The translations under genes and the position numbers were made by a program. The notes under the pieces are model-generated. The model searched no databases and was not told where the DNA came from. It worked only from the letters and a program-made list of their open reading frames with translations. DNA of 63,392 nt, counting the filler, from Rhizaria sp. SCN 62-66 (Eukaryota): assembly GCA_001724265.1 (NCBI GenBank). It is 3 parts of 3 records of this genome, joined end to end, with 100 filler letters (N's around TTAATTAATTAA, not from the genome) between each part and the next. Parts side by side here need not be neighbours in the genome. Positions count along the whole stretch, not along the records: positions 1 to 27,182 come from MEDY01000662.1; 2 more parts are not named here. One strand, given 5' to 3'. How positions within the stretch are numbered: the stretch's first letter is position 1; every line of letters begins with the position of its first letter. Below, in pieces: positions 9,001 through 63,392 of the stretch.

Positions 9001-12000
9001 GGGAACCAACGCGACGTACACAGTCTCCAGCCCAGCGGCGACAACCTCCTCGGCCGTGGCCTGCGCGGCGGACGCCGTGAGCCCGCCGCGGCGGCCCGTC
9101 TCGGCGGCCTCCAGCGCGGCCAGCAGCAGCGCGCCGGCGTCACAGTCATCAACGCTGTCCGCGCTGCCGCTGGCGCTGGTCTCGCTCTTGCTCTTGCTCT
9201 TGCTCTTCTTGGTGAGGCGGGCGCGCGCGGCGGCGACGCTGCTGCGGAGCGCCTGTGCGTTGCCCGAGGCCGCGGCCCAAGCGGCGTACACTTCCAGCGC
9301 GCGGCGCACGGCGGCGGCCGCGGCGGACAGACAGGCGGCCTTGGCCTCAGCGTCCGCCTCAGCGTCCGCCTCGGCATCAGCGGCGTCGGCAGCGTCGCTG
9401 GCGACGGGCTTGGGCTTGCTGTTGCCGGCGAGCCAGCGGGTGAGGCGCGCGATGTGACGCGAGGTCAGCACGCCCTCGATCTCGTCCTCCTCCTCGTCGT
9501 CGTCGTTGGCGCCGGTGCCAGAAGACTTGGCGCCGGATACGGAGTTGCTGCTGCTGGGGAAGGCGAACGTCGCGACGCCGGCGGCGCGCGCGGCGGTCGC
9601 GGCCTCGGTCGCGGCAACCCACGCGGCGCGTGCGGCAACCCAAAGCCCGGGCGCGGCGGCGCGGGCCGCGGCGGCCTCGCTCACGGCGGCCGCAGAGGCC
9701 GCGGCGGCGCAAAGAGGCGCCGGCACGGCGGCGGTGTCGAGCGCCAAGACCGGCGCGGGCGCGGCGGCCAGGGCGGCGGCGAGCTGCGGCAGCGACAGCG
9801 GCGCGCTGGTGTCGACGGCAGTAGCAGCAGCGACTGCAGCGGCCTCCTTGCCGGCGTCGGCGTCGGTCTTGGACTCGGCACCGTCGGCGGGCTTGTTGGC
9901 GTTGGCGATGAGAGCATAGAGGTCGGCAACGGTGAGGTCGCGCAGCAGCGGGTGCGCCCCGAGGGCGGCCTCCACGGTCTCGGCCAGACTGGGGTCAGCG
10001 ACCACGGGCTCAGTCACGACAGGCTCGGTGACAGCAGGCTCCTCGGTAGCAGCGGACTCAGCGGCGGGCTCGGTCAACTCAGCAGCAGGGGCAGCGGCAT
10101 CAGTCGACTCCGCCTCAACGTCAGCATCAGCCTTGACAGCCTCGGACTCGGCTTCAGTGTCAGCCTTAGCGGACTCAGCCTCAGTGGTCTCCTCAGCATC
10201 GGCCTTGCAAGTCTCAGCCTCAGCCTCAGTAGCCTCAGCAGCAGCCTCAGCTTCAGCCTCAGTAGCCTCAGCAGCGACGGGCACAGCGATCGGGACGGCC
10301 TCAGCAGCGATGCGCGCGCGCACGAGAGCGCGGGCCGCGTTAACCCTGTCGACGAGCGCCTGCGCCTGCGCCGCGCTCACCGTCTCGGTCGTGCGCTGCG
10401 CCCTGGCCTTCGCCGTCGCGATGATGGGCGCCGCGTCGGCCTCCCACTCCTCCTGCTCGTCGTCCTCCTCGGCCTCAGCCTCAGCAACAGCGTCGGCGTC
10501 GGCCTCAGCAGAGGCCTTGATGGCGTTGGTGTCGTCAATTACCTTCTCAGCACCGCCGACAGTGGTGCTAGAACTGGCCTGTGCGCTGGCGGGCTTGGCG
10601 CGCGGGTCGACGCCGCAGAGGTCGTCGAGGTCGTCCTCGGCCACCACCGCGGGCTCGTCGTCGTCGGCAGCACTGCGCTTGCTGTGGGCGAGCGCGGCTG
10701 TGGCCGAAGTGCACACCTGGTCCTCGTCCTGCTCCGAGTCGGACCAGCCGCCCGCGAGCGCTGCGGGGCAGGCCTCAGCCGCCAGCGCGCGGGCCAGCTC
10801 GCCCTCAATCGCGCTCGCCACGCGGTCGAACGGACTCGCCTCGCTCGAGTCGGTACTCGCAGTCGTAGCAGTGAACGAAGCAGAGCTCGCGGCGGTGCTG
10901 TTGATGATGTTCGTGGCGGCGGTGGTGCGGAGCTTGGCGAAGGCGCGGTCGTGCGCGATGCGCCCCGCCACGGCCGCCGTCACCACGGCCTCGACCTCGC
11001 CCCACGCGGCTGCGCTCTCGGCCGCGGTCTGGCCCTGCGCGGCGGAGCGCGCCTGGAGCAGCTCGCGGACCGCGGCCACGCCCTGCTGCAGCGCGTCGGC
11101 CGTCGCGGGCCGCTGCGGCGCGCCGGGCAGCAGCTCCGCGCGCGCTGCGACGTAGCCCTCGGACCGCGTGCCAGCCACCCAGGCGGGGTTCTGCGCGCGG
11201 CCGTACGCCTGCGCGGCCACAGCCTCGGGGGGGACGACCTAGAGTAGATCACAAAAAAAGACAAGAAAACGAAGGCAGTTGTGAGGGTTGATATATCATA
11301 AAAAGCACTTGGATGGAAAACTATGAACGACGTTTGAATAATGGAAATGATGTTTTTGAACGAGTATAATAACCAGTTTAAACGCAATCGACATGGACGC
11401 ACCTGGTACGGCTCCTGGCCGTCGACAACGGTCGCGGGCCCCCACTCGCGGGGGTCGAAGTGCGAAGCGAGCCGCAGCAGCAGCCGCACGTCGCCGACCC
11501 CGGCCGCGAGCACGCTGCCCGCGGTCGCGCCACCGTCGGTGTGGGCCGCGGCGTCGGCGGCGGCGGCGGCGAGCGCCTCGAGCGCCTCCGGCTCGGCGGC
11601 GGCGACGGCGCGGCCGAGCACGCGCACCGCGGGCCACACGCCCAGGTATGCGGCGTAAGGCAGCAGCGCGAGCTGCGTCGCGGTCGGCAGCGCCAGCGCG
11701 TGGAACGGCAACTGGTAGGCGGCCCAAAAGGCCTCGACCGCCTGGCGCGGGTCCTGCAGCAGGTACGCCGCATCGAGCCGCGCCAGCGCCAGCGCGCGCA
11801 TCGCGGCCGCGCTCGCGGCCAGAGCGGCAGCGTCGGTCTCGGCGCTCGAGGAAGACGCGGAGGACAGGGCAGAGGCGGACGTGGCGGTGAGGGCGGCAAC
11901 CTGCGCGGCCGAGAGGTCGAGCACGCGCCACACGCGCAGCAGGTGCGCCCGGGCCGCCTCCTCGCCCGTGGCCGCAGAGGCCGCAGTAGCGGCGGCAGCG

Positions 12001-14958: not shown

Positions 14959-17900
14959 ATGAGCCAGTCTGCGCAAGCCTATATCCAGGCACTGGAGCAG
15001 CGCAATCGCTTGCTTCGCCGCGCCAAGGCACGTTTTATCATGCCTCATGTTTGCCTCTTGTTCACCTCATGTTCACATTACTGTCCCGCTGTTCACTCAC
15101 ACGAGCACAACGCTCTACCCTGACACTACCTATTTTGTCACGTTTTTTGCGCAGGAGCATGAGGAGAACGCGCGCATCAAGGAGCGCGAGGCGGGCTTCA
15201 GCGTGTACCTGAGCGGCGCCAACACCAACCCCGCCACAGCCTCTATCGGCTCCTCCACCGCGGCCGCCGCCAACCCCTCCGCCGCGCCGGGGCCTTACTC
15301 GCACGCCTCCGTCGCGCAGCGCTTGCGCACCCCGCAGCTGCAGCAGCAACAACAGCAGCCGCCGCCGATTGTATCGCCGTCCAAGGGCGGCCGGCCGCAG
15401 ACCTCGGTGGCCGGCGTCCCTCTCTCTGCAGCGCACGGCCATTCGCAATCCGACGCGGCGACCGCTGCTGCCGCCGCTGGCGCTGGCGGTGGCAGTGGCG
15501 CGCACGGCGGCGCGCGGCCGCACCGGCAGACGTGGGCGTCTGCCTCCCCGGCGCGGCCTAGCTTAAAGCAGGCGGGCGAGTTCGATGGCGACATGAGGGC
15601 CGTGATCGCCGCGGCTACGGCGGCGGCGGCCGCGGCGGCCGCGGCCGACGGCAGCGAGGGCGGGACTGTGGCGGGGACGGGGCTGGCGAGTCTGATCGCA
15701 GACATGTACGGCAACAACAACAGCAACGACGAAGATGACCAAGACAATGATGACGTTGATGATAACCAGGATGACGATGATCGCGATGTCAACAGCCACA
15801 ATGACGGTTACAAGTCGCCTCCGGTGAACGGCGACGCGCTTCAGTTTACGACCGTGTCTTTTGCCGACGCCGACGCCGCTTCCCCCCGCAGTCCGGGCGC
15901 TTTCGCTGTTGCGGCTGCTGCCGCTGCGAACGCCTCTGCCGCCGATGCTGAAGCGAGCCTCTCCGGCCGCGGCAGGACCAGGGACCGCGGGGCGCGCCCG
16001 CCGCGGCCGCTCACCGGCAAAGCGGCCGGCGCTGGAGCTACGCACAGTCACGACGACTGCACTATCGACGCAAACAATAACTCGGGGGCATCCATGACGG
16101 CAGACACTGCTGCTGCCGCGACAGCCCTGATGACGAAGTCGCAGAGCAAGGCGGCCAATGATGGGAGTTACGCTGGCGCTCACACGGGCGCTGACACGGG
16201 GACTTACACGGGTACTTACACCGGCGCGCTGGCTGGCGATCGTGAGCGCGGGCCTGAGCGCGACCCGAGTTTGAGCACCAGCGGCAGCTTCGCGCAGTAC
16301 TTAGACCCCAAGCACTTAGCCGAGGCCAGCAGCGCGACTGTGAGCAGCGTGCTCGCGACGGCGAAGAAGGCCAATGTAAGTGTGGGCGCGCCGGTAAGCA
16401 CCTCCGGTGTAAGGGGGCTGCGGCCCGGCGTGAGCACTGTGGCCACGGCCGGAAGCAGCAGTATTGCGCGGTCTACCCACGCCGGCGCTGCTGGTCCAGA
16501 CGACGATGGCGACGAAGACCTCTCGGCGGACTCGATGGACGATGCTGAGGATGACGACAACGACGCGGACGCCAACGATAGCTACGTTCACAATGGCGAT
16601 GCTAAGTCAGGCCGCAAGGGTGCAACCTCATCAAGCAGCAGTAACCTGAAGATCCAGCCATCTGCTCCAGGGACGAACGAAGCTGCTGCCACGGGTGCAA
16701 ATGCACAGCAGCAGCAAGCACGCGTGCAGCAAGCCTCAACTGCAGTGGCAGCGCGCGCTGCCCGCATCGCGGCGGCCGCAGCCTCTGCGTCCGCCGCCGC
16801 TGCCGCCGCTGCGGTGGCCCGGGCCAAGGTTCGGACCAGCACGACCTGGGATCCTCCCGTTAACGCCCCTATTAACGCCGCTGCCGTCTCTAACTTGCAT
16901 GCCGACGTGAATGCTAAAGGCGGTCGAAGCTCTGCAAGCGGCGCACCGCTGGATTCATCCGTTTTGTCTGCGTTTGTTTCCGCCAAGAACAAGGCTGATG
17001 GCAGCAGCAACAACACTGAGGACGGGGATGGCGACGACAAAGACAAGGCAAAGACCGGTGAGACCCTGAACGACGACGACGCAGCTATTGTGGCCGAGGC
17101 CGCGGCCGAGGCCGCGGCCGAGGCAGCAGCAGCAAAGGCAGCTGCAGCAGCAGCAGCGCCCTCAGGGGCAGTGGCGCCGGCTGGCGAGGCGTGGCGTGCA
17201 TCGCTGCTGCTGGGTGACGCGTCGTCGCTAGCGGCGGCGCTGGCAGCGATGCAGACGGGCCGGCAGTCCAAGTCGCAGTCGCAACAGAGTGGAGAGAAGC
17301 CAGAGAAGGCGGAGAAGCCGGCCCCTGTTGTGAAGCGCGCGGCACAGTCGCAGTCGCGCACGCGGCCGCGGCCGCAGTGGTGCGCAGACACCAGCACAAG
17401 CACGAGCTCAAACGCTAACACTAATAATGGCACCAGCGCGGATGCAAGCTTGGTTGAGGCCACCAGCAATGGTGCTGAAGTAAGCCCTGCTGCTGTAAGC
17501 CCTCCTCTCCCTGTCAACGCTCTTACCACCGCGAATACTCGCTCCAGCTCTAGCGCCGCCCTTGGTGCTGCGAGCGCTGATGGTGATGTGACTATGCTGC
17601 TCGACCCGTGGGAGGCCGCCCTCATCTCGCGCATCCGTGCTCTCCGCACCAAGGCCAACAGCGTCCCCGCCCCCGCCCCCGACTCTGACTCAGGCTCCGG
17701 CGCGACTGCAAGCACGGCCGTGGGCCAGAACAGTGTTGTGGAGCGGACGATGGACGCGGTGCTGTCGCGGCTTGAGACGCGCGTTGAGGCGCGGCTGCTC
17801 ATTAACACTCCGAGAACAGCTGCGGGACTGCTTGCTACGACAACTACTGCACCGGTGGCAACTTCGCAATCGAACCTTCGTAGCGCTGGTGCCGACGGCC

Positions 17901-18574
17901 ACACTGCGGCTGCCACTGCGACGACAACGACTGCCACGGCTGCTGCTGCTGCTGCTTCCCTCGCTGGGCACGTCGACTATGACTCGGGCCGGTCGCCCCC
18001 CGCGCCGGCGCCGGCGCGCGTGCCCTCCCGCGTTCGGCCCGTCGCCGCAGACGCCCATGTCGCCGCCAACACGGATGCCCACACTGACGCGGGTCCGAAC
18101 CCTGCCCATAGCCAGTCGCTGTCGCAGCTTTTTGACGTCAGCGCAACTGTGCGTGCGCACCACAACGCTACCGCGGCGGCACACAGTACCGGCGGCAACA
18201 ACGTGAGCGCGGCGAGCAACGGCAACGGCAACGGCAGAGGCAGCTTCGGTCAGAACACCAGCGAGTCAGTCACGTTTAGGAGCGGCGGCAGCGGCTTCTA
18301 TGTACCCCTGAACCCGCCTGTCGCCGACTCTCGCGATAACACTGGGAATGCGACCTCTGGTGTGGTGGCGAGCAATGCGGGCGCGAGCGCTGAGCCAGCC
18401 GGGGAGCACTACGGCGACATGAATCGAGCCACCACCGGTGTTGACGGCTCTGGTATCGCCGCTGCTGCAGCTAATGCTGCTGAGGTCGGCGGGCCGGGGT
18501 GGGGACGCGCCAAGATGGCGGCTTATATTCGAGACAAGGACTTGAAGCGCTCGCAGCAGCATGTGCCGCAGCCT

Positions 18575-18613
<39 letters not shown>

Positions 18614-19552
18614 AAACAGCAACAGGTGTACCCATTTCCGTTGCAACAGCAGCAACAGCAGCCAGTCAACATGAGCTCACCTCAGCAGCAGCAGCAGCAG
18701 AAGCCCAGGCAGCAGCAGTCGTCGGCGTCGCTGCCGCCATTCGCTTGGCTTGAGCCCGAGCCCGCTCCCCCCGCTGCCCACGGTCAACATCAACATCATC
18801 AACATCAGCAACAGCAGCAACAACAAGGTGGGTACTTTAGCGACGCCATCGCTGCGACACCTGTGGCAGGCTACAACAACAGCAGCAACGCTAATGCTGC
18901 GTTTCACTCGAATCCCCCGTACGCGCAGCACACGTTGCCCCAGTACCCGCAGCCGCAGCAACAGCAGCAACACCTCGGCGCCCACCACCAGCAGCAACAG
19001 CAGCAACAGGTGTTGCAGCATTACCTGCAGCAGCAGCTCCTTCTTTCGCACGGCGCGCCCGCACCGAACGCCAACGCGGTCAACAACACGAATCTGACCG
19101 CGAGCTCGGATCACGCGGGCGCGAACCTGAACAACAACAGCAGTGCTGGTGGGGGTGTACACGCGAGCGCGAGTGCAGGTGACGCTGGCGCAGGCGTGCT
19201 GCCAGTGCGCCTGCGCCGTCCCCCCAGCGCGGGCCGCCGCGCGGCCCCCAACGCGGCGCCCGCGCCAGTGCACGCCGACAGCGCGGGCAACGAAAACCCC
19301 AACACAAGCTTCAACAGTGGCCTTGAATCCGGTGCACTTGCGGCGACTGTGGCCGCGCCCGCGAATGGCGCACCGCCCGTGGTCGCAGCGTCTGCACCGG
19401 GGGCGGCGGGTCGGTCCAAGTGGGGCCGGCCGCGCGCGCTGCCGGTCGTCGCAGGCAGCGGCAACGGCGGCAACAGCGGCAATGGCAGTGCTGGAGGGGA
19501 GTCGGCTGGTATCAGCGACAGTAACACTGGAGGAGGTACGGGCTTTATGTAA
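14959..19552 (+). CDS. Low-complexity protein (~1,488 aa) with KATNIP/KIAA0556-like N-terminal motif; exons 14959-15027, 15155-19552
   Basis: Spliced N-terminus MSQSAQAYIQALEQRNRLLRRAK/EHEENARIKEREAGFSVYLSGAN resembles the KATNIP N-terminal motif as I recall it (Y..LLQQRNRIL...LEQGFSVYVNGAN). The rest is Ala/Ser/Asn/Gln-rich and looks disordered. Ends in TAA, followed by an AT-rich spacer. Confidence 0.8.
15028..15154 (+). other. Non-canonical GC-AG intron, 127 nt, phase 0
   Basis: AAG|GCACGTTTT...TATTTTGTCACGTTTTTTGCGCAG|GAG. The donor matches the GTACGTTTT donor at 14327 except at +2, and this junction makes the conserved motif contiguous. Confidence 0.7.
18575..19040 (+). repeat. Clustered CAG/CAA repeats encoding polyglutamine tracts
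   Basis: A Q13 run at 18575-18613 plus several shorter Q/H runs inside the CDS. Confidence 0.9.
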
Positions 19553-22557: not shown

Positions 22558-25500
22558 ATGTTGGCCAAGACTGGCTCCCGCGCAGCCGCCGCTGCCCTGC
22601 GCGCCTGTAGCCAGACGGCTGCTAAGGCCGCCGCCGCTGCTGTGCCCACTGCTGCCGTCTCCTCTCGTCTCACGTCCTCAGCCGTGCCCCGAGCCAGCGC
22701 CCGCTCGCTCGCGGCCGCTGCTTTGCGCCCTCAGCCCGCCCGCCGCGCCGCGGCCGCGCTCGTCTCGGTGCCCCGCGCCGCCTGCACTGCCGCTGCTGCG
22801 AACAACTCTCACAAGTCATCTGCCTCCGCCTTTGCTGCCTCGGACTCCCGCGCCCGCGCTGTTGTCGCCACCCCGCTTGCGACGGTGACGGGCCCACAGC
22901 TGCACGCGCGCTGGTTGCTCTTCGCGCTGGCCACCGCGACCGCGGCGCTCTCCGCCATCCGCGACGCCAACAACTCCGGCGCCACTGACGGCAGCGACGC
23001 GTTCCCCCCGGGCACGGTGTTCCTGTGCGCGCGCACGGGCGCCGTGCTCGACGCCGCCGATGCGCTCCGCCTGCGCAGCGCCGACGCCGCCGCGGTGGTG
23101 GCCGTGCCGCCCGCCGCGCTGCAGCCGCTGCGCGCGCTCTCCGCCTCGCACGCCGCCGCCGCGCGCCTGCTGCCCGCGCGCGCCGCCGCCCACGACGACA
23201 GCAACAGCGACGGCCAGAGCGCGAGCGGCCGCGGCTGGACGCTGCCCGAGCTGCGCCTGCCCACGCTGCTCCTCACCGCGCTCGCCGCCTCCGCCGACGA
23301 CGCCGACAACAACATCAGCAACAGCAGCAGTGCCGCTGGGGCGAACGACGCCCTGTCGCGCGCGCTGCCCGCGGGCGTGTCGTGGGGGCAGCTCGTGGCG
23401 CTCTCGCGCGCCACCCCCGAGTCCGCCGCCGCCATGACGGCCGCGCTCGCCGCCCTCCCGCGCGACAACAGCGCGGTCAGTGGCGGCGACGTCGACGCCG
23501 ATGTCGACAGCGCCGAGGCGGCGGCGTTTGCGGACCCTCTGCACCCCGTGTACGACGACGAGGGCTTCTGGCGCTTCTACGCGGCACTGTCCCGCGAAGA
23601 CCCCGCGCTGGCGGCGGTGCCCGAGGTCATCCTGGAGTACCGCGCGCAGTGGGCCGAGCAGGCCGCGGCCGCCGCCGAGCTCCGGGCCGCGCGCGACCGC
23701 GCCGCCGAGCAGCTCCGCGCGCTCAAGGCCTCCGCAGCCAGCGCCGTCGGCGCGGTCGCCGACCTGACGCCCGCTGCCGCCGCCGCCGCCGCTGCCGCCG
23801 CCGCCACCGCCGCTGCGGCGGTCGTCACCGTCGTGGACGTCGCCACCTCGGCGCAGCAGTCCTCTCAGTCGCCTGTGCAGGCCCAGTCGCAGCCTCTGTC
23901 GGTGGCGCGCCCCGTGGGGTACCACAAGCAGCTGCCGCCGGCCGAGGAGACGGTCCGCGCCGCCCTAGCGCGCGCCTCGGCCGCCGCGGCCGCCTCGGTC
24001 AACGCCGGCAACGCCGCCCCGCACGCGGCCGCCAACGGCTCCTCCGCGTCCTGGAGCGCGTGGCTTGGCCTGGACTGGCTGCTGGGCGTTGCCCCCGCGC
24101 CCCCCGCGGCCAACATCTCGGCCGCCGCGGTCGTCGCGCCGACGCCCGAGGCCGCGGCGGCGGCCGCCGTGGCCGCCGACGCCGCGGCGGCGTGTCGCGC
24201 GCTGGGCGTGGACCCCGCGGCCGACGCCGACGCGCTGGCTTTCGTCACCGACGGCGCGGGCGTCTCGCGCCTCGCGCCGCACACGGCGATCCAGCGCAAA
24301 GCGCTCGCCCTGTCGGAGCTGCCTCCTGCCGTCGCCGCGCGGCTCGACGACCTGAGCTTTCTGCAGTCGCGCGCCGCGCTGCTGCGCGCGCAGGCCACCG
24401 CGGCGGCGCGCGCGCTCGACCCCGCTGCGACCGCGGCCGCGAGCGTCGGCGGCGGCGGCCGCGGTGCCTTCTCTGCGGCCGCGGGTGGCGCGGGCGGCGA
24501 GGAGCGCGCGGGCGGCATCGTGGGTGCGCTGGTCAAGGCGCTCTCGGCGCAGGCCGCGGCGCTCAAGAACCTCCGCGTGCCCGGCCACGAGGGCCCCGTC
24601 GACGTGGCGAGCCTCAACAAGGAGGAGCGGCGCTACGCGGCGGCCATGATCGCCAGCAACGCCGCCGACACGCTGCTTGGCGGCGGTGGCCTGCAGGCGA
24701 CGGCCACGGCCGACACGCCCGTGGGCTCGCGCGCGGCCCCGGGGCTGCGGACCGGCACGGGCGCCGTTGCCATCCCGGCGCGCGCTCGGATGGGCACCGA
24801 CGAGACGCAGTACGCGGGCGTGACGCAGCCCAAGGACGCGTTCCTGGAGGACCCCGTGGACGAGGACGACTTCGCGACGGACCCCAGCACGCGGCCGCTG
24901 ACGATCGTGGTGCACGTCGACACGGTGTCGGTGGGCGTGGCGCGCGACCGCGAGACAGGCGAGTGGCACACATACGAGCGCCCCGGCTGGGTGGGCTGGA
25001 TGCGCGCGCTGGACCGCATTCCGGGCGCCGAGGTGATCGTCTGGGACGGGCCCGACCTGCTGGCCGCGGGCGTCGCCAACGCGCAGGAGCTGCGCACTAA
25101 GCGCGACATCTCGGGCGGCGCGTTTGTGCTGACGGAGCGCGTCGAGACGAAGCAGGGGCCCGACGCGCTGGCCGAGGCGGGCGTGCTGATGCCCGTGACG
25201 GACCGGGAAACGACCGAGCGCGGCGAGTTCCGCCGCGACCTGCTGCAGCGCGACACTGGGCTGCCCGAGTTCGACGCGCTGGCCGACGCCGAAGAGCACT
25301 GGCGCGGCGACATGAAGACGTGGTGGGCCGCGCAGCCGCGCGAGACGGTGGTGCAGGACGTCAAGCTGGAGCGCTGGGGCACGGGCGTGCGGCCCGACGT
25401 CGCCGCGGGCGGCAAGTTCAGCCACGCCAGCGAGCGCGGCACGGTGCGCATCTTCGGCGTCGACGTCAAGACGGACTGGGGCTCGTGGCTCAACCGCCTG

Positions 25501-26640
25501 ACGTACGTCGACCGCGACGACCTGTACATGCCCTACGGCGCGGAGCACTTTGACTGGCAGCAGTACCGCCGCGTCGATGGCGAGCTGGTGCGCGATATCC
25601 GCTCGCTGCGCCGCGACATGCGCCGCGTCATCCTTATCGACAACGACTCGACGCAGCGCCGGCTGTGGCCCGAGAACTCGCTCAAGGCCTTCGACGACGA
25701 CCACGACGACGGGTCTTCGCTGCCGCGGCCCGTGGACGCGGCGACGCTGCCGCTGCGCCCCGTGCCCAAGGACAAGGAGGTCCGCGACCGGCGCGAGTTC
25801 TTGCAGCTGCATCACCTGCTCATGGGGCTGCAGATGACGCGCTGCCCCGACGTCAAGGAGCCCATCCTGGGCTGGAACCTCGCCGCCGCGGGCGTCTCCT
25901 CGGGGCTCGGCGCCTACGGCCCGCAGGTCGGCGTGCTGCGCAACCCGGTGACGGGCGAGGCGCACATGGACCGCCTGTCGTCAGCCATGCTGTCGACGCT
26001 GCACGAGTACAAGACTGCGCAGTCGCAGCTTGGGCTGTCGGACGAGCCCGCGCTGCCCAAGGGCCGCAAGTCGCTCGCGCCACCGCCGCCCAACGCGTAC
26101 CAGCGCGTGCTGGCTGCGCAGACGGACGACCTCATCGCCGCCGTCACGCACGAGAGCGCCGCGCTCGTCGACTCGGCGCGCAACGCCGTCGCCGCCGTCG
26201 CAGGGCTGGGCGAGCGCGTCGACGGGCTCACCTCCGCGCTCGCCGCCGCCGCGCCCGCCGCCGCGCAGGGCTGGGCCTCGTGGGCCCTGTCCCCGCTGCA
26301 GGGCCTGTTCGGCTCCGGCTCGGCCGCGAGCGCGGGCGACAATGACAGCCGCACTGCGAGCCCGCTGGCCATGGACCCCGCGACGGCGGCGGCGCTGCTG
26401 GCCGCGGCCGCGCAGGCGCCGCTGACGCCGGGCGAGGAGGCTGTTCTGGCCGCCGTGGGCCCCGCGTACGCGCCCACCGTCGCCGGGCTTGCCCGCCGCG
26501 CGCGCGTTGGCGTGGCCGAGGAGGCGCTGCTCGCGGGTGCCGACGCTGAGACCGTGGCCGCCTCCGCGGGCGCCGCGCTGCTGTCCCCCGAGGACCTTGC
26601 GGGCGTCGCCACCGTCAACGGCGAGATGCGCGTGGGCTAG
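22558..26640 (+). CDS. TIM50: Tim50-like mitochondrial import protein (FCP1/NIF-like domain), 1,360 aa to TAG; possibly 1,452 aa to TAA at 26916
   Basis: Arg/Ala/Ser-rich, acid-poor N-terminus (presequence-like) and a hydrophobic stretch WLLFALATATAALSAI. NIF/Tim50 motifs at ~24890-25880: PLTIVVHVDT, GEWHTYERPG, DGELVRDIRSLRRDMRRVILIDND, WPENSL, DVKEPIL. The DxDxT catalytic motif is degenerate, as in several Tim50s. Confidence 0.75.
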   Translation: MLAKTGSRAAAAALRACSQTAAKAAAAAVPTAAVSSRLTSSAVPRASARSLAAAALRPQPARRAAAALVSVPRAACTAAAANNSHKSSASAFAASDSRARAVVATPLATVTGPQLHARWLLFALATATAALSAIRDANNSGATDGSDAFPPGTVFLCARTGAVLDAADALRLRSADAAAVVAVPPAALQPLRALSASHAAAARLLPARAAAHDDSNSDGQSASGRGWTLPELRLPTLLLTALAASADDADNNISNSSSAAGANDALSRALPAGVSWGQLVALSRATPESAAAMTAALAALPRDNSAVSGGDVDADVDSAEAAAFADPLHPVYDDEGFWRFYAALSREDPALAAVPEVILEYRAQWAEQAAAAAELRAARDRAAEQLRALKASAASAVGAVADLTPAAAAAAAAAAATAAAAVVTVVDVATSAQQSSQSPVQAQSQPLSVARPVGYHKQLPPAEETVRAALARASAAAAASVNAGNAAPHAAANGSSASWSAWLGLDWLLGVAPAPPAANISAAAVVAPTPEAAAAAAVAADAAAACRALGVDPAADADALAFVTDGAGVSRLAPHTAIQRKALALSELPPAVAARLDDLSFLQSRAALLRAQATAAARALDPAATAAASVGGGGRGAFSAAAGGAGGEERAGGIVGALVKALSAQAAALKNLRVPGHEGPVDVASLNKEERRYAAAMIASNAADTLLGGGGLQATATADTPVGSRAAPGLRTGTGAVAIPARARMGTDETQYAGVTQPKDAFLEDPVDEDDFATDPSTRPLTIVVHVDTVSVGVARDRETGEWHTYERPGWVGWMRALDRIPGAEVIVWDGPDLLAAGVANAQELRTKRDISGGAFVLTERVETKQGPDALAEAGVLMPVTDRETTERGEFRRDLLQRDTGLPEFDALADAEEHWRGDMKTWWAAQPRETVVQDVKLERWGTGVRPDVAAGGKFSHASERGTVRIFGVDVKTDWGSWLNRLTYVDRDDLYMPYGAEHFDWQQYRRVDGELVRDIRSLRRDMRRVILIDNDSTQRRLWPENSLKAFDDDHDDGSSLPRPVDAATLPLRPVPKDKEVRDRREFLQLHHLLMGLQMTRCPDVKEPILGWNLAAAGVSSGLGAYGPQVGVLRNPVTGEAHMDRLSSAMLSTLHEYKTAQSQLGLSDEPALPKGRKSLAPPPPNAYQRVLAAQTDDLIAAVTHESAALVDSARNAVAAVAGLGERVDGLTSALAAAAPAAAQGWASWALSPLQGLFGSGSAASAGDNDSRTASPLAMDPATAAALLAAAAQAPLTPGEEAVLAAVGPAYAPTVAGLARRARVGVAEEALLAGADAETVAASAGAALLSPEDLAGVATVNGEMRVG

Positions 26641-27182
26641 GGCGAGGGTGCGCGGTCGAGTGGGCGCGGATACGGCCGCACGACGCGCGCGCTGCGCGAG
26701 GCCGAGGCCGTGCTCTCCGGCGCGGCTGTGGCGCAGGACCTGGCCGCTGCGGACCGCATGTGGGAGCTGGGCGTGGTGAGCGAGGCTGATTACGACGCGG
26801 TGACGCGGCCGCTGGAGCAGGCGCAGGACGCGCTGGCCAAGGGTCACGTCAGCGGCGACGACGCCTTCAGGAAGCTCGGCGTGCCGCTGCTCTCCGACCG
26901 GCCCACCCGGCGTTAAGCGAAGCGCGCTTAGCGAAGCATACGCTGGACGCACAGCACTGATAGTGTGTATGGTGTGATGGAAAACAATATTTAACACTCA
27001 GTTTTATAAAAGCTTTTGTGTGTGAAATATATGAGAGATATTAATTGTATTTTATTTGTAGAGTCAGTAATAGAAAAGGCGGGTTTCAAGACACCGTTTT
27101 ACAACACAAAAACCCCTCACCAACCCATCGATTTCAATAGCCTCATGCACCTTTTTCAAAAGCCGCCCATTTCTCTCTTCTC

Positions 27183-27282
27183 NNNNNNNNNNNNNNNNNN
27201 NNNNNNNNNNNNNNNNNNNNNNNNNNTTAATTAATTAANNNNNNNNNNNNNNNNNNNNNNNNNNNNNNNNNNNNNNNNNNNN
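27183..27282. other. Artificial contig linker (N44 + TTAATTAATTAA + N44)
   Basis: Exactly 100 nt with a central palindrome placing TAA in all six frames; identical to the linker at 56681. Confidence 0.97.
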
Positions 27283-56680: not shown

Positions 56681-56780
56681 NNNNNNNNNNNNNNNNNNNN
56701 NNNNNNNNNNNNNNNNNNNNNNNNTTAATTAATTAANNNNNNNNNNNNNNNNNNNNNNNNNNNNNNNNNNNNNNNNNNNN
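56681..56780. other. Artificial contig linker (N44 + TTAATTAATTAA + N44)
   Basis: Same 100-nt structure as at 27183. The right-hand contig begins inside a CDS. Confidence 0.97.
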
Positions 56781-59700
56781 CCGCCGTGCGCGCGCTGCTC
56801 GCGCGCGCGGACCCGGCTTTCGCTGCGCTGTCCGCGGCGGCTGTGGCTGCAGCAGCGGCCTCGCGCGCGGGCGCGCTGTCCGCGGCGTCGCGCGCGGCCG
56901 CGCTGGCCCGCTGGCGCTGCGCCTTCTGCACCGCGCATCCCGGCTCGTGGGCGCGCGGCGCGTACCGGCCCTTCCTCCGCGCCGCGCGCGCGGGCACGCT
57001 GCACGACCCCGAGCCCGACGCAGCCGACTCGGACGCAGACTCAGACGCTGACGCTGACGCCGACGCGGACGCCGACGCTGGCGCTGGCGCTGGCGCTGGC
57101 GCGGACAACAAAGCTCTGTACGCCGCCAATGGCGGCGACGACGACGACGACGATGACTTCTTGGCGGCGTTCGACGTGGACGCCGACGACGACTACGACG
57201 CCGAGGGCGACGGTGACGGCTGCGGCGGCGGCGGCGCGGTCAAGAGCGAGGCGCGCGTCAAGCGCGAGCGTGAGCGCGAGTCGGCCGTCGCGACGGGCGG
57301 CAAGGTGCTCTCGGCGCGGCGTGCGGCGGCGCGGGCCACGGCCGCCTTGGCGACATACGACCCCAAGGAGGATAGAGACCTAGACGGCTCATCCTCATCC
57401 TCCTGTGACGCCAGTCCGGACCGCAAGGGCGGCGATAGCGCGGGGCCCGCAGACGCGGACAAACAGAGCCACCGCAGACTGCCACGCGGGCCCCTGGCCG
57501 CGTTCCTCACGCCGCCGACGACGCACGCCCACACACGAAATCTCAACAACAACAGCGGCGGTCCAAGCTCCCGCGATCGCACTGCCCCCACGCTGTCGTC
57601 CGTACCCGTCGTGAATACCGCACGCAGTGTCCAGCATGTGTCGCGCGCCGCGGCGCTGCTGGCGGCGGTGCCCGAGCGTCGCTGCGCGCTGTGTCCCAAC
57701 GTGGTGGACCGCGCGCTGCGCCCCGCGGCCCCCGGCGAGCTGCCCCCCGGCGTCGTCAGCGCCGCGCAGAAGGCCGCCAGTAGCAAGGCCTTGTCTGCGC
57801 GCGCCGCCAAGGCCGAACCCGCGTCCGCGAACGGCAAAAACAGCGACATCGGTGACGGCGGCACTGGCAGCGCGCAGCTGTGGGTGCACCCGTCGTGTGC
57901 GCTGTGGCACGCCGAGGTTGTGCTCGACGACCCGAACCACTTTGCGCGCGCGCGCAACTTCGCCGGCTTCCCCGTGGGCCGCCTCAAGCTCGCGTGCACG
58001 GGCTGCGGCCAGCGCGCGCGCGGCCCCGCGCTGCAGTGCGTGTACCCGCGCTGTAGCGAGTCCTACCACCCCTCGTGCGCCGCGCGCGCCGGCGGGGCGC
58101 GGCTGCAGCTGCGCGAGCCAGAGCGCCGCGAGCGCCGCGCGCCGGCCCGCAGCCACAAGCGCGAGCGCAAGGCGACCGGCGCGAAGGCGAGTGCCGCGAA
58201 GGCTGGCGCCAGGGCGAGGTCTGCGCGCGGACGAAGCCGCAGCCGCAGTCGGGGTCATGGCGGGGCTGCTGATGAGGACGACGACGGCGATGGCTATGAC
58301 CGCAAGGGCGGCGTCGACGTCGACGCGGACGACTATGACGACGGCGAGGTCGAGGCTGAGGAGGACGAGGACGACGAGTACGACGTGTTCTTCCACAGCT
58401 ACTGCCCGCGGCACTGGGCGCTGCGCGGCTTCGTGCTGTCGGACAACTCCGGCAAGGCCAAAGGCCGCCAGCAGCGCGAGCAGCAGCGCGCGCAGCTCAC
58501 CGCCAGCCACGCGCGCGCGCTCGCCGCGCCGCTGCAGCCCTCCTCGGCCTCAACCTCTGCGGCCTCCTCTGCCGCACCAGCGTCCGCGGCGGCGGCGGCG
58601 GCGGAGACGGCGGGCTCGGCTGCGCAGCGCCGGCCCAAGCGTCACAGCGGCGACCTCCTGGCCCCCGCCTCTGCCGCGGCCGGGGGCGCCACGCCGGCGT
58701 TTCGCGCCCGCGGGCCGGCGCGCGCGAACCCCGCCACGGCCACTGCTAGCGTCAGCGCGAGCGCGAGCGCGAGTGCTAGCGAGGACGATAGCGACGGCGG
58801 CGCGGCCGCCGCGGGGCCCCGCACCAAGCGCGCCGCCGCTGCGACCGCTGCCACTGCGTCTGCGACTGCCGCGCGCGGGGGGCGGGGCGCGCGCGCGCCC
58901 CAGCCCCGCGGCCGCGCCAGCGCCGGCGCCGACTCCGGCGCCGCAACCGCCTCGAGCGCGGCGATCGAGCTCGGCGGCGGCGAGGAAGATGAGGCTGCCG
59001 CGGTGGCCGCCGAACTGGCCGCCGCGCAGCAATGGCGCTGGGCCCCGGGCGCCGCCGCCGCGCTTGGCCTCACGGGCGATGACGCGGACGCAAACGGAGG
59101 CGCGAACAGGCGCGGCAGTCTCGGCGGGCTGGGAATGTCCGTCACGCTGACCTCTTCATCCTCGTCGTCGTCGTCGTCGTCGTCCTCAGCTGCTTTGTCG
59201 TCGCCCTCGTCGGAGGCTTTCGTCTCGGCGCTCGCGTCAGCACAGGTGCAGGCGCAGGCGCAGGCGTCGGAGCCGGTGCGCCTGCTGGCGACCAAGCTGA
59301 GCGACGCGCAGCTGTCCGCGCTCTCGGCGCTGGCGGCGCTGCTGCCGTCAGTCATAGTCGACTCGGGCGCCGCGCCCACGGCCGCTGCCGCCGCCGCCGC
59401 TGCCCCGATGCGCGCGTGGCCGTGCAACGAGGGCCCCGCGGTATTTTCGCCGGCCATCACGCACGTCGTCAGCGGCGCGCTCTCCCCGCTCACTGCCGTG
59501 CCCTCATCAGCAGCAGCCGCCGCCGGTGTGCGGGGCTCGCGCGGCCGCGGCCCGGGCGCCTCGCCGTCCTTCACCTCGCCCGCGACCGCCGCCGCGTCCG
59601 CCGCCGCTGCCGCGCGCGCCGGCGCGGGCGTGGGCGCGGGCGTGGTCGCAGAGCGCACGGTCAAGTACTTCTTCGGGCTCGCCGCGGGGCTGCCTGTGCT

Positions 59701-60523
59701 GTGCTTCGACTGGGTGCCCGCCAGCCTTGCCGCGCGCGCGCCGGCGGCCTGCGCGCCCTTCGCGACACGCGGCGACGCCATGTGCGCCGCGCGCGAGGCG
59801 GACCGCGCCGCGGGGCCCGCCGCCGCCGCGCTGCGCGAGTTCGTCCGCGCGCGCGACGATAACCACGGCGACAGGGACAGTGAAAAGGACTACGCCGCAG
59901 GCGACGATGAGGACACCGCTGCCGCTGCCGCTGCACCTGCGGGCGCGCTGCCATGTCTGCTGCCACTGACGCACCCTTCGCGCGTCTACATCAGCCACCT
60001 TGCAGGGTCTACTGCGCACCAGCGCAACGCGTCGCCGCAGGGCCTGTTCGCGGGCGAGACGGTGTGGGTGCTGCCGCTGCCTGCGTTTGGCCCCACGCCG
60101 CTGGAGACCGCCGCCGGCTTTACCGCCGGCGCGGCGGCGGGCGGCGCGGAGCCCGACGGGCTGGCCGCCGAGGCTGCCGAGCTGCTGCGTTGGGCCGGCG
60201 CGCGCGTGGTCCCGCTGCACGACGCCCGCTGGGCCGCGCGCGCGCTGCGCTGGCACAAGACGCAGCAGCTCCTTAACAACAGTAGCAACAGCAACAGTGG
60301 CAGTGGCAGTGCGGATGCGGGGCTGCGGTTCCCTGCGCCGACGCTGGTGCTGACGCCGCAGGTGCCGTCGAGCGGGCAGTGGGACCTGGCCGTGGCGGCC
60401 GCGCAGCTGGGCGGCTTGGGTCGCGCCGAGCGACAGGCCGCGGCGGCCGCGCGCGGGGTCACTGTGCGTTGGGTCTTCGACTCGCTCTCGCACGGCAAGC
60501 TGCTGCAGCCGGGAGACAAGTGA
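56781..60523 (+). CDS. PHD/extended-PHD zinc finger + tandem BRCT protein (BRCA1/BARD1-like C-terminus), 5'-truncated
   Basis: WRCAFC (end of a PHD); CALCP...WVHPSCALW...CTGC...LQCVYPRCSESYHPSCA...YCPRH (ePHD, zf-HC5HC2H type); BRCT1 with THVV...ERTVKYFFGLAAGLPVLCFDWV; BRCT2 with GLFAGETV...LLRWAGARVV...WVFDSLS. Stop TGA followed by an AT-rich spacer. Confidence 0.85.
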
Positions 60524-61087: not shown

Positions 61088-63392
61088 ATGTCTGATCCTG
61101 CTGCCACCAAGCCTTCTAAGCCGGAGGTGGCCGCACCCGGCGCTGCTTCTAGTGGCGATAAACCCTCCATGTCGCGCAAGCAGTCGGTCGTGGTCGGGGC
61201 ACCCGGCTCTGCCGGCCTTGCGTCCCCTGGCGCCCCCGGCGGCCCCGACGGCGATGGTGCCGAGCCGCCCTTGCCCCGCGAGCTCGCTGGCGCTACGGGC
61301 TTTCCCTGGCGCCTTCGCACACTGAACATCTCCGCCCCTGCGGCCCGCGCCGGTGCGGACGCCCCCGTCACGTTCACCAGCCTCGACGCTGCCCCTCCTT
61401 GCTCACCCGCCGCTGCCGCCGCTGCGACCGCGGGCCCGCGCGTGCTGCTGGGCACGAGCGACGGCCGCGTCTTCCTCTACACCACCGCGTCTATCAGTGC
61501 TGCGTCTGCGGACGCTGCGTCGCCCGCCTCGGCCGCTGCGGCCGCCGCGGCCGCCGACGCCGCGACCCAGGTCGAGGCTGAGGCCGACGTCGCGGCGCTG
61601 CTGCCTGCGGCCGCGCTCTCCGGGATCTCTGCCTCCGCCGCGGGGGCCGTCAGCCACGTCAAGGCGCTCATGTTCGGACCCGCGCCGCCGCCCGCGGGCC
61701 CGAATGCGAGTGCGAGTCCAACTGCGAGCGCCGCGAGTGCGAGTTCGAGTGCCACCGACTCCGCGGTGACCGTGGCCGCGGTGACCGAGGGCGCGCGCGC
61801 GGTGGCCGTGCTGGCGCTGGGCGCTGCGGGCCGCGGCGCGCGCCTGCTCGCCTGGCACCGCGCGCACGCGCTCAGCGCCGTCGTGCTCCCGCCCGCCTCC
61901 GACAGCAACAGCGGTGCGACTGTCACCGCGACGGTCACCGCGCTCTGCTGGGGCGCCCCACCGCCTCCGACCGCGACCGCCGCCGCCGATGCCAACGCTG
62001 ACGCCAGGGCCGGGGCAGACGTGGCGTGGGTGATTTCGGGCGACTCGGCCGGCTGCGTGCGGCTGCTCTCTGTGCCCCTGTCAAGCGCCAGCGCCAGCGC
62101 CAGTAGTGATAACGTGCGCGAGGGCGAGGCGGTGCTGCTGTTCCAAGACGACTCGGCGATTGTGCAGCTCGCGTGCGAGGCGGGCGTTGTCCTCGTCTCC
62201 TCGCTCACCAAAACCACCGCGCTGCGCCTCTCCGCAGCACCGGCGACGCCGCCCGCCGCCGACAAGGGCGCCCCCAACGTGGCCCCTGCCGTGGCCGTGC
62301 GGCCCATCGGCTCGCAGTCGCGCTTCGGCGCGTTCGGCGCGTGCTTCCTGCCGCCGCCGCCCACGGCCGCGCCCGGCTCGCTGGTGCTGGCCGCGCGCAA
62401 GGGCCGCCGCCTGTGGGTCGCGGACTCGGGCTCGGGCCAGGTCCTCACCACGCTGCGGCTGCGGCTGCCCGTCTACGCAGAATTCGCGCATGCCGCCGCC
62501 GCGCTCGCGTTGACGTCTCCCGAGGCCGCGGCGGCGCGCGCGGCGCCCGCAGCGCTGCTCCCCGCGCCCGCGGTGGCGCACTGGCCGCCCGCGCCCGCGC
62601 CCGCGCTGGCGGCCGCGCAGTCGCTCGAGCGCCTGCTGCCCTTTGCCGACGGCGCGCTGCTGCTGGGCCTTGCGCCCGCCGTGCCGCTGCCGCTCCCGCC
62701 GCAGCCCGCGCCCCCCGCGCCGGCCGCCGGGGCCGCGCACGCCGCTGGGGCCGCCACGCTCTCGACTCCGGGGTGTTACGGCGGGGACCCGTGGGCGCGC
62801 GCGCTGCTGGCGCCCGGCGCGCCGACGACGCTGACGGTGACTGATCCGGCCGCGGGAGCTACTGTTGCGTGGACCGCCTCGCTGGGCTGGGTCGCCGCCG
62901 CCGCCGCCGCGCCCGCGGGCGCGCTCGTCCTGCTCCATGCCCCACTTGCAGTCAATAGCACCAAGGGCACCGCCGAGACGGTGACAGGCAAGGCGCTGCT
63001 GGCGAGCGCCAGCGTGGCGCGCGGCGGCTGGGGCTCCGCGACGGAGGCCGCGGCGCTGACCGCTGCGGGCGCGGGCGCTCTGGTTATCTCCGTCGCCGCG
63101 CCCACACACCCGCTCGACCTCGCCGTCGAGCTCGCCGCCGACCCGCAGCGCCTTTACGTCGCCGCCGCCGACAAGCGCGATAAGAGCGACAAGAGTGAGA
63201 CGCTGCTGCGGCTGCGCGCGCTGCCGTGGCCGCCCGCGACGCACCCGCTGGAGCGCGCGCTGGCGCTGGCGCGCGCCGCGCTGTCGGGCACGCCCGCGGC
63301 CGCGCGCGCGCTGGCCAAGGCGCGCTCGCAGCAGCCCAACGCGGCGCCCGTGCTCAAGTCGCTGGTGCCCGCTGCGGCGCTGCGCACGCGCC
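61088..63392 (+). CDS. HPS5/TECPR2-like WD40 beta-propeller protein, 3'-truncated (>=768 aa)
   Basis: ATG at 61088 at the AT-to-GC transition, with the frame open to the window end (hence absent from the ORF track). Motifs VLLGTSDGRVFLY, VTALCW, ISGDSAGCV, DSAIVQL...LVSSLT, IGSQSRFGAFGACF and AARKGRRLWVAD...GQVLTT follow the HPS5/TECPR2 N-terminal propeller pattern. Confidence 0.8.
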   Translation, partial: MSDPAATKPSKPEVAAPGAASSGDKPSMSRKQSVVVGAPGSAGLASPGAPGGPDGDGAEPPLPRELAGATGFPWRLRTLNISAPAARAGADAPVTFTSLDAAPPCSPAAAAAATAGPRVLLGTSDGRVFLYTTASISAASADAASPASAAAAAAAADAATQVEAEADVAALLPAAALSGISASAAGAVSHVKALMFGPAPPPAGPNASASPTASAASASSSATDSAVTVAAVTEGARAVAVLALGAAGRGARLLAWHRAHALSAVVLPPASDSNSGATVTATVTALCWGAPPPPTATAAADANADARAGADVAWVISGDSAGCVRLLSVPLSSASASASSDNVREGEAVLLFQDDSAIVQLACEAGVVLVSSLTKTTALRLSAAPATPPAADKGAPNVAPAVAVRPIGSQSRFGAFGACFLPPPPTAAPGSLVLAARKGRRLWVADSGSGQVLTTLRLRLPVYAEFAHAAAALALTSPEAAAARAAPAALLPAPAVAHWPPAPAPALAAAQSLERLLPFADGALLLGLAPAVPLPLPPQPAPPAPAAGAAHAAGAATLSTPGCYGGDPWARALLAPGAPTTLTVTDPAAGATVAWTASLGWVAAAAAAPAGALVLLHAPLAVNSTKGTAETVTGKALLASASVARGGWGSATEAAALTAAGAGALVISVAAPTHPLDLAVELAADPQRLYVAAADKRDKSDKSETLLRLRALPWPPATHPLERALALARAALSGTPAAARALAKARSQQPNAAPVLKSLVPAAALRTR

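Follow-up and report, generated by a model that had tools for sequence, protein, structure and literature searches.

A strain-specific in-frame TAG codon near the 3' end of a Tim50-like gene in an uncultured protist, probably a recent nonsense allele

In-frame TAG codon and coding signal beyond it

We analyzed a stretch of DNA of 63,392 nucleotides (nt) from the assembly of Rhizaria sp. SCN 62-66 (GCA_001724265.1), referred to here as the window, in which a long open reading frame (ORF) for a Tim50-like protein is followed, beyond an in-frame TAG codon, by sequence that still looks coding. The main ORF of 1,360 codons stops at the TAG (codon 1361), and the same frame then continues through 91 sense codons, called the tail below, to a TAA (Table 1). 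The TAG is located in the final 6% of the ORF, close to where the first of the window's three contigs ends. All positions and counts of the original prediction (i.e., the TAG at 26638 to 26640, the TAA at 26914 to 26916, and 82 codons ending in G or C among the 91 of the tail) were reproduced.

The codon usage of the tail closely resembled that of the preceding gene. The G+C (GC) fractions at the first, second, and third codon positions (GC1/2/3) were 0.80/0.56/0.90 in the tail versus 0.77/0.59/0.93 in the 1,360 codons upstream, and the two other frames of the tail contained two stops and one stop, respectively. The predicted shift from GC-rich to AT-rich sequence was indeed seen only past the TAA: over the first 100 nt downstream, the GC fraction was 0.33 to 0.43 after the five undisputed stops of the window versus 0.80 after the TAG. 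Codons were counted in a set of seven genes of the window (19,612 codons), in which the TAG at 26638 was the sole internal stop; the four other gene ends listed in the original prediction (TAA, TGA, TAA, and TGA) were confirmed. An open run of 91 codons alone is within chance expectation in a GC-rich gene, 10 of the 22 off-frame gaps between stops in the TAG gene reaching at least 91 codons. What goes beyond chance is the in-phase codon periodicity of the tail, together with its homology.

Homology of the tail

Only two proteins were matched in an exhaustive phmmer search of 1.84 billion cluster representatives. One of them (P0003) is a self-match to a 68-residue ORF of the window that lies inside the tail; it is recorded on six contigs, the longest of 108,477 nt. 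The other (P0002) is a hypothetical protein of 841 amino acids from a JGI metagenome (contig of 5,659 nt), 46 to 47% identical to the query, and was the sole relative found in the protein searches. Additional homolog searches, some of them restricted to 8,000 candidates owing to alanine-rich words, yielded the same two proteins. Its alignment begins at residue 730 of the main ORF and extends to residue 720 of the 723 in the query and to residue 838 of the 841 in P0002. When the tail was compared with P0002 by BLASTP, 28 of 59 residues were identical (E = 5e-12; P0002 residues 781 to 838), with the shared motif PLLSDRP at the end of the match. Because P0002 is a single unbroken ORF that aligns over these last 59 residues, and because insertions and deletions between strains are found only past the TAA (see below), the tail appears to be ancestral coding sequence. 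The original claim that coding sequence continues past the TAG is therefore upheld, and sequence comparison identifies the tail as a genuine part of the same Tim50/NIF-like protein. The proposed alignment of orthologs over the TAG was informative for the tail but not for the codon itself, which lies within a stretch of 12 residues missing from P0002.

An AlphaFold model of the last 163 residues, based on a two-sequence alignment and with a mean predicted local distance difference test score (pLDDT) of 60.7, was used for calling helices and disorder only. The TAG position falls in a segment with a pLDDT of <50, and ten-residue blocks reached means of 77 to 88 in fragment residues 101 to 140, where the predicted helices of the conserved tail block are located. 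A stretch that is missing from the relative and modeled with such low confidence marks the TAG site as a probably tolerant one.

At the DNA level, searches for a related locus in metagenome_contigs (147 pattern matches), genome_contigs (126 pattern matches), and viral_contigs (47 pattern matches) revealed no relative. The conserved C-terminal motif, searched as a degenerate DNA pattern, had no matches in metagenome_contigs. Its single match in genome_contigs (L001) was rejected as a chance match on the opposite strand of a gene whose translation reads like a cyanobacterial glutamyl-tRNA reductase.

Identity of the encoded protein

The main ORF encodes a large alanine-rich protein, which at its full length of 1,452 residues contains long alanine-rich insertions. 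Its Pfam match to NIF (PF03031) was borderline (22.1 bits versus a cutoff of 21.8; E = 1.4e-4) and covered 40 residues only. The best matches of a two-homolog profile to PDB were yeast Tim50 structures (4qqf and 3qle; E = 0.0027), and 28 of the 30 matches in the Atlas feature search were NIF-family clusters, with a TIM50 cluster at rank 2. Residues 1 to 95 contain no aspartate or glutamate, and a hydrophobic segment follows near residues 119 to 134; an acid-free N terminus and a hydrophobic stretch would fit a presequence and a membrane anchor. These features are shared with Tim50/NIF proteins (FCP1-like HAD family). Unlike in that family, however, the protein contains long insertions within its 1,452 residues, only about 40 residues match the family model, and just one relative was found among the representatives searched. 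The designation "Tim50-like" in the original prediction is accordingly retained as a reasonable but weakly founded label: the NIF match exceeds its cutoff and the structural matches point to Tim50, but all of these matches are borderline. The SHOCT-like motif suggested for the tail was not recovered, as a Pfam scan of the tail at E ≤ 1 returned two subthreshold matches, GvpG (E = 0.015) and DUF6611 (E = 0.086), and none to SHOCT.

Haplotypes at the TAG codon

The organism is present in public runs from bioreactor, wastewater, and sludge samples. Twelve public runs contained part of the stretch, four of which (X1, X3, X6, and X7) were compared at the site in the form of contigs. The X1 contig (3,304 nt; depth, 26.4) comes from what is probably the window's own source run, and the X3 contig (646 nt, 26298 to 26943; depth, 6) comes from a different sample with a different study code. 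Both are identical to the window over their whole length and carry T at 26638. Since contigs of two samples agree on this letter, the T is real and not a random base-call error, a possibility to which the original prediction had given equal weight.

The two remaining contigs carry C at this position. X6 is a DNA run of a different study (264 nt; 8 differences from the window), and X7 is a polyA-selected metatranscriptome of yet another study (630 nt, 26473 to 27115; 13 differences). They have in common eight linked differences from the window, including the C at 26638, which makes the codon CAG (Gln). This CAG haplotype is approximately 97 to 98% identical to the window. X7, the sole RNA run over the site, is colinear across the codon along its whole span and extends into the AT-rich 3' flank. 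Splicing over the TAG, which would have refuted the original prediction, is thereby ruled out; moreover, the only intron recognized in the window is AT-rich, unlike this region. RNA editing is ruled out as the source of the C because the DNA run carries the same C with the same linked variants, so that the C represents strain variation.

Between the strains, the tail differs by seven substitutions (three synonymous and four nonsynonymous) and no insertions or deletions, and five differences (three synonymous) lie upstream of the TAG. These numbers are too small to separate the readings considered below, and the differences are not polarizable because P0002 has a gap at the site. Insertions and deletions start past the TAA, namely, a CAT insertion behind 26936 in X6, whereas X7 lacks 14 nt at 26941 and has one additional nucleotide at 27073. 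Coding constraint thus ends at the TAA, the tail being altered by substitutions only and the sequence directly past it by insertions and deletions. As X6 and X7 differ in the 3' flank (26936 to 27073), at least three haplotypes of the locus exist in engineered-water samples.

Two kinds of apparent variation were set aside. Short joints and loose ends at approximately 26234 to 26560 were attributed to unrelated GC-rich organisms matching low-complexity runs of alanine codons. Other letters at 26508, 26547, and 26563 in X1 and X3 occurred only within 7 to 16 letters of contig ends. Among the runs, X4 and X5 look like one data set under two study codes (both 399 million letters; share, 0.23), as do X2 and X3 (see below), so that fewer of the samples are probably truly independent.

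Interpretation of the TAG codon

The TAG is probably a recent, strain-specific CAG-to-TAG nonsense allele that truncates a conserved tail at a tolerant position in a linker. The original prediction had listed a nonsense allele among the possibilities, and with CAG found in sister haplotypes from two other studies, it is now the best-supported explanation. In such a scenario, a C-to-T transition would have changed CAG (Gln) into TAG in one strain of an uncultured, GC-rich protist with introns and standard stops, at a site toward the 3' end of the gene that encodes a variable linker, probably a disordered one. Translation in the TAG strain would mostly terminate at codon 1361, and the product would be a Tim50/NIF-like protein of 1,360 residues without its conserved, helical C-terminal tail of 91 residues, a truncation that the strain would tolerate. 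The full-length protein would be made only when UAG is decoded at a low, unprogrammed level by a near-cognate tRNA, probably tRNA-Gln(CUG), and the tail would still look coding because the mutation is young. With a gap in the outgroup at this position, the polarity of the change can only be inferred. Of the 13 listed differences (the stop codon itself not counted), 7 pair an A or T in the window's strain with a G or C in the other strain; in a gene with a GC3 of 0.93, this would fit an accumulation of GC-to-AT mutations in the lineage of the window.

Nonsense polymorphisms are most frequent toward the 3' ends of genes, and exon-junction-dependent mRNA decay does not act on a premature stop located in the last exon. 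The TAG resembles the 3'-end nonsense polymorphisms of natural populations in being a single C-to-T change for which other strains keep the sense codon, in leaving the downstream frame intact and codon biased, and in its location within a variable linker close to the end of the ORF. It differs from them in that the truncation takes away the part of the protein's C-terminal third that is best conserved and in that TAG is not documented as a terminator in this organism. On balance, the finding looks like an ordinary event, a young nonsense mutation carried by one strain of an uncultured protist. Its significance is mainly practical: a stop codon followed by coding-like sequence in a metagenome assembly need not indicate an error or a recoding signal, and comparison at the strain level can separate a nonsense allele from either. 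Apart from its TAG, the gene deserves some attention for its product, a 1,452-residue Tim50/NIF-like protein that ends in a conserved helical tail and for which a single relative was found in the protein collection searched.

Several observations weigh against a nonsense allele. The tail shows the same degree of conservation (47% identity) as the other parts of the protein, and its loss should therefore carry a cost. In the TAG strain, it has acquired no second disabling change and retains a GC3 of 0.90; an intact tail fits a very young mutation but also continued translation. CAG in the sister strains is exactly what would be predicted if UAG were read as Gln. None of the five undisputed stops of the window is TAG, and the window thus offers no evidence that TAG terminates translation in this organism. 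Furthermore, the TAG haplotype was the only one seen in the two samples that contain it (X1 and X3), although contigs drop rare variants, and a minor CAG allele could be present in either sample. Finally, X3 may be the X2 data set filed twice (455 versus 456 million letters; same word share, 0.93), and both T-bearing samples may therefore belong to a single sampling campaign.

That UAG is instead read as Gln, through a nascent or low-usage reassignment or a suppressor tRNA-Gln(CUA), is unlikely. TAA and TGA would then be the sole terminators, and the TAG/CAG difference would be a synonymous polymorphism. CAG at the exact codon in the sister haplotypes and the intact, conserved tail agree with this explanation, but the former counts for little because CAG to TAG is among the commonest routes to a nonsense codon. 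Likewise, the undisputed terminators (three TAA and two TGA) agree with it, but they are too few to be informative: no TAG among five stops has a probability of approximately 0.33 even if TAG makes up 20% of stops. The codon counts argue in the other direction. The seven genes contain 513 CAG and 77 CAA codons (590 in total) and one in-frame TAG, which is thus 0.17% of the Gln-type codons. If TAG accounted for 1%, 2%, or 8% of Gln codons, the probability of finding at most one TAG would be 0.018, 7.7e-5, or 2.7e-21, respectively. Approximately 51 TAGs would be expected at the 8% share, and, by analogy with the synonymous pair TTG/CTG (127/658), approximately 99 would be expected at equilibrium. 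In-frame UAGs at conserved Gln positions were not found, the sole TAG of the seven genes lying in the stretch that is missing from the only distant homolog. The 841-codon ORF of P0002 was called with standard stops, and searches of the window with ARAGORN and Rfam revealed no tRNA genes and no RNA families, respectively.

There is a precedent for such a code. A UAG-only reassignment to Gln, with UAA kept as a stop, is described for Iotanema spirale in PMC5304391, which reports 204 in-frame UAGs in 126 genes, or approximately 8% of Gln codons. The present gene is similar to the I. spirale cases in that an in-frame UAG occurs where a close relative has a Gln codon and in that only TAA and TGA are seen as terminators, but it differs in that one TAG in seven genes is far below the share given for I. 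spirale. An established TAG=Gln code is therefore unlikely and is rejected for the seven-gene sample, in agreement with the doubts of the original prediction about a genome-wide reassignment; the counts leave room for a very young or rarely used one. An early capture of UAG for Gln, in which a tRNA-Gln reads UAG, TAA and TGA are the sole terminators, and TAG drifts in at tolerant CAG sites, is rather improbable. The difference between the strains may, under such a capture, represent a synonymous polymorphism at the onset of a code change. If this were true, the finding would carry far more weight: a barely used UAG=Gln codon would represent the first step of stop-codon reassignment, which has been deduced before but seldom seen directly.

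Also unlikely is an efficient, functional readthrough of this UAG, which would produce isoforms of 1,360 and 1,452 residues, aided by a G directly behind the stop codon and by a GC-rich hairpin. The extension does evolve as protein-coding sequence, being intact, conserved in P0002, and free of strain insertions and deletions, but conservation of the stop, the usual hallmark of programmed readthrough, is lacking: the codon is CAG in the X6 and X7 haplotypes, and the ORF of P0002 is unbroken. The hairpin (approximately 26650 to 26688, 9 to 10 nt past the TAG) has a folding energy of -21.5 kcal/mol, which ranks only at the 7th percentile when windows of equal length across the gene are compared. 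The 60-nt window directly after the stop reached the 2.5th percentile, but this was the only 1 of 12 length and spacer settings below 5%, uncorrected for multiple tests. One pair of the hairpin is disrupted by the sister-strain change at 26656. The context of the TAG, G-UAG-G, is similar to that of the real stops, the next base being G after four of the five undisputed stops and G or A after all of them.

In readthrough of the retroviral gag-pol type, UAG is decoded in a programmed manner with insertion of Gln. The present site is comparable in that the UAG is followed by G and by a GC-rich stem approximately 9 nt downstream and in that Gln would be the likely residue inserted, but its stop is not conserved and its hairpin appears unexceptional for this GC-rich gene. 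PMC13192750 reports near-cognate reading of UAG by tRNA-Gln under the canonical code, which would favor readthrough here, and a promotion of Gln insertion at stops by a Q-x-Q context; the residues flanking the TAG, however, are V-G and G-E. No dedicated readthrough signal is thus indicated by the sequence. Because the stop is not conserved and neither a leaky context nor an exceptional downstream structure was found, conserved programmed readthrough appears unlikely, and the programmed recoding envisaged in the original prediction finds no support.

It is highly improbable that the TAG is an artefact (i.e., a sequencing or assembly error or a minor variant raised to the consensus in the source data set): although the window is a stitched metagenome assembly, X1 is probably its own source, X3 is perhaps a twin of X2, which shares the study of X1, and contigs rather than raw reads were compared, the T is a plain substitution in nonrepetitive sequence, is found both in the X1 contig of an independent assembler and in the X3 contig, and as a random error would not recur in two libraries.

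Layout of the window and neighboring genes

The window consists of three concatenated contigs, as indicated by a six-frame stop linker (TTAATTAATTAA) between N runs at 27183 to 27282 and 56681 to 56780. The gene neighborhood across these joins is therefore artificial, and the three parts need not adjoin in the genome.

Table 1. Features of the window and their positions
Feature	Position	Strand	Description
Intron	11402-11239	minus	164 nt, AT-rich, GT-AG, phase 0; joins ORF 14243-11403 to ORF 11238-1
ORF	15047-19552	plus	1,501 codons; GC3, 0.71; 26 CAA versus 75 CAG
Main ORF	22558..26637	plus	1,360 codons, from ATG to the codon preceding the TAG; GC3, 0.93
NIF/FCP1-like (Tim50-type) HAD motif region	25570..25689	plus	Residues 1005-1044; only segment with a family match
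In-frame TAG, codon 1361	26638..26640	plus	T at 26638 in the window's strain
Tail	26641..26913	plus	91 sense codons in the frame of the main ORF
Best-conserved tail block, VAQDLAAADR ... PLLSDRP	26728..26904	plus	BLASTP match to P0002; predicted helices
TAA, probable ancestral terminator	26914..26916	plus	GC fraction of 0.43, then 0.33, then 0.30 downstream
AT-rich 3' flank (3' untranslated region or intergenic)	26917..27182	plus	Extends to the end of the first contig; N linker next
N runs	27183-27226, 27239-27282, 56681-56724, 56737-56780		Flank the twelve letters TTAATTAATTAA at each join
Single unbroken ORF	28043-55699	plus	9,218 codons; GC3, 0.76, below that of the TAG gene
Protein with PHD-like zinc fingers (zf-HC5HC2H)	56786-60523	plus	Third contig
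HPS5-type beta-propeller protein	61088-63391	plus	Third contig

The other genes of the window encode Sushi, TIG, PHD-finger, and HPS5 beta-propeller domains. These domains, the intron, and the contig from polyA-selected RNA jointly identify the organism as a eukaryote. The PHD-like zinc fingers and the HPS5-type beta-propeller encoded on the third contig are eukaryotic hallmarks. In the longest ORF of the window (Table 1), the second half contains Sushi repeats, a TIG domain, an ephrin-receptor-like domain, and a weakly TRP-channel-like C-terminal region.

On the first contig, the intron unites two long minus-strand ORFs into a spliced gene with 4,693 stop-free codons in the window, the whole gene being longer than that. 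Pfam yielded no match for this gene or for the plus-strand ORF of 1,501 codons (Table 1). The TGA at 10980, which closes the upstream minus-strand ORF in listings made with translation table 11, is not a real gene end. The codon periodicity of the 1,501-codon ORF is weaker than that of its neighbors on the same contig.

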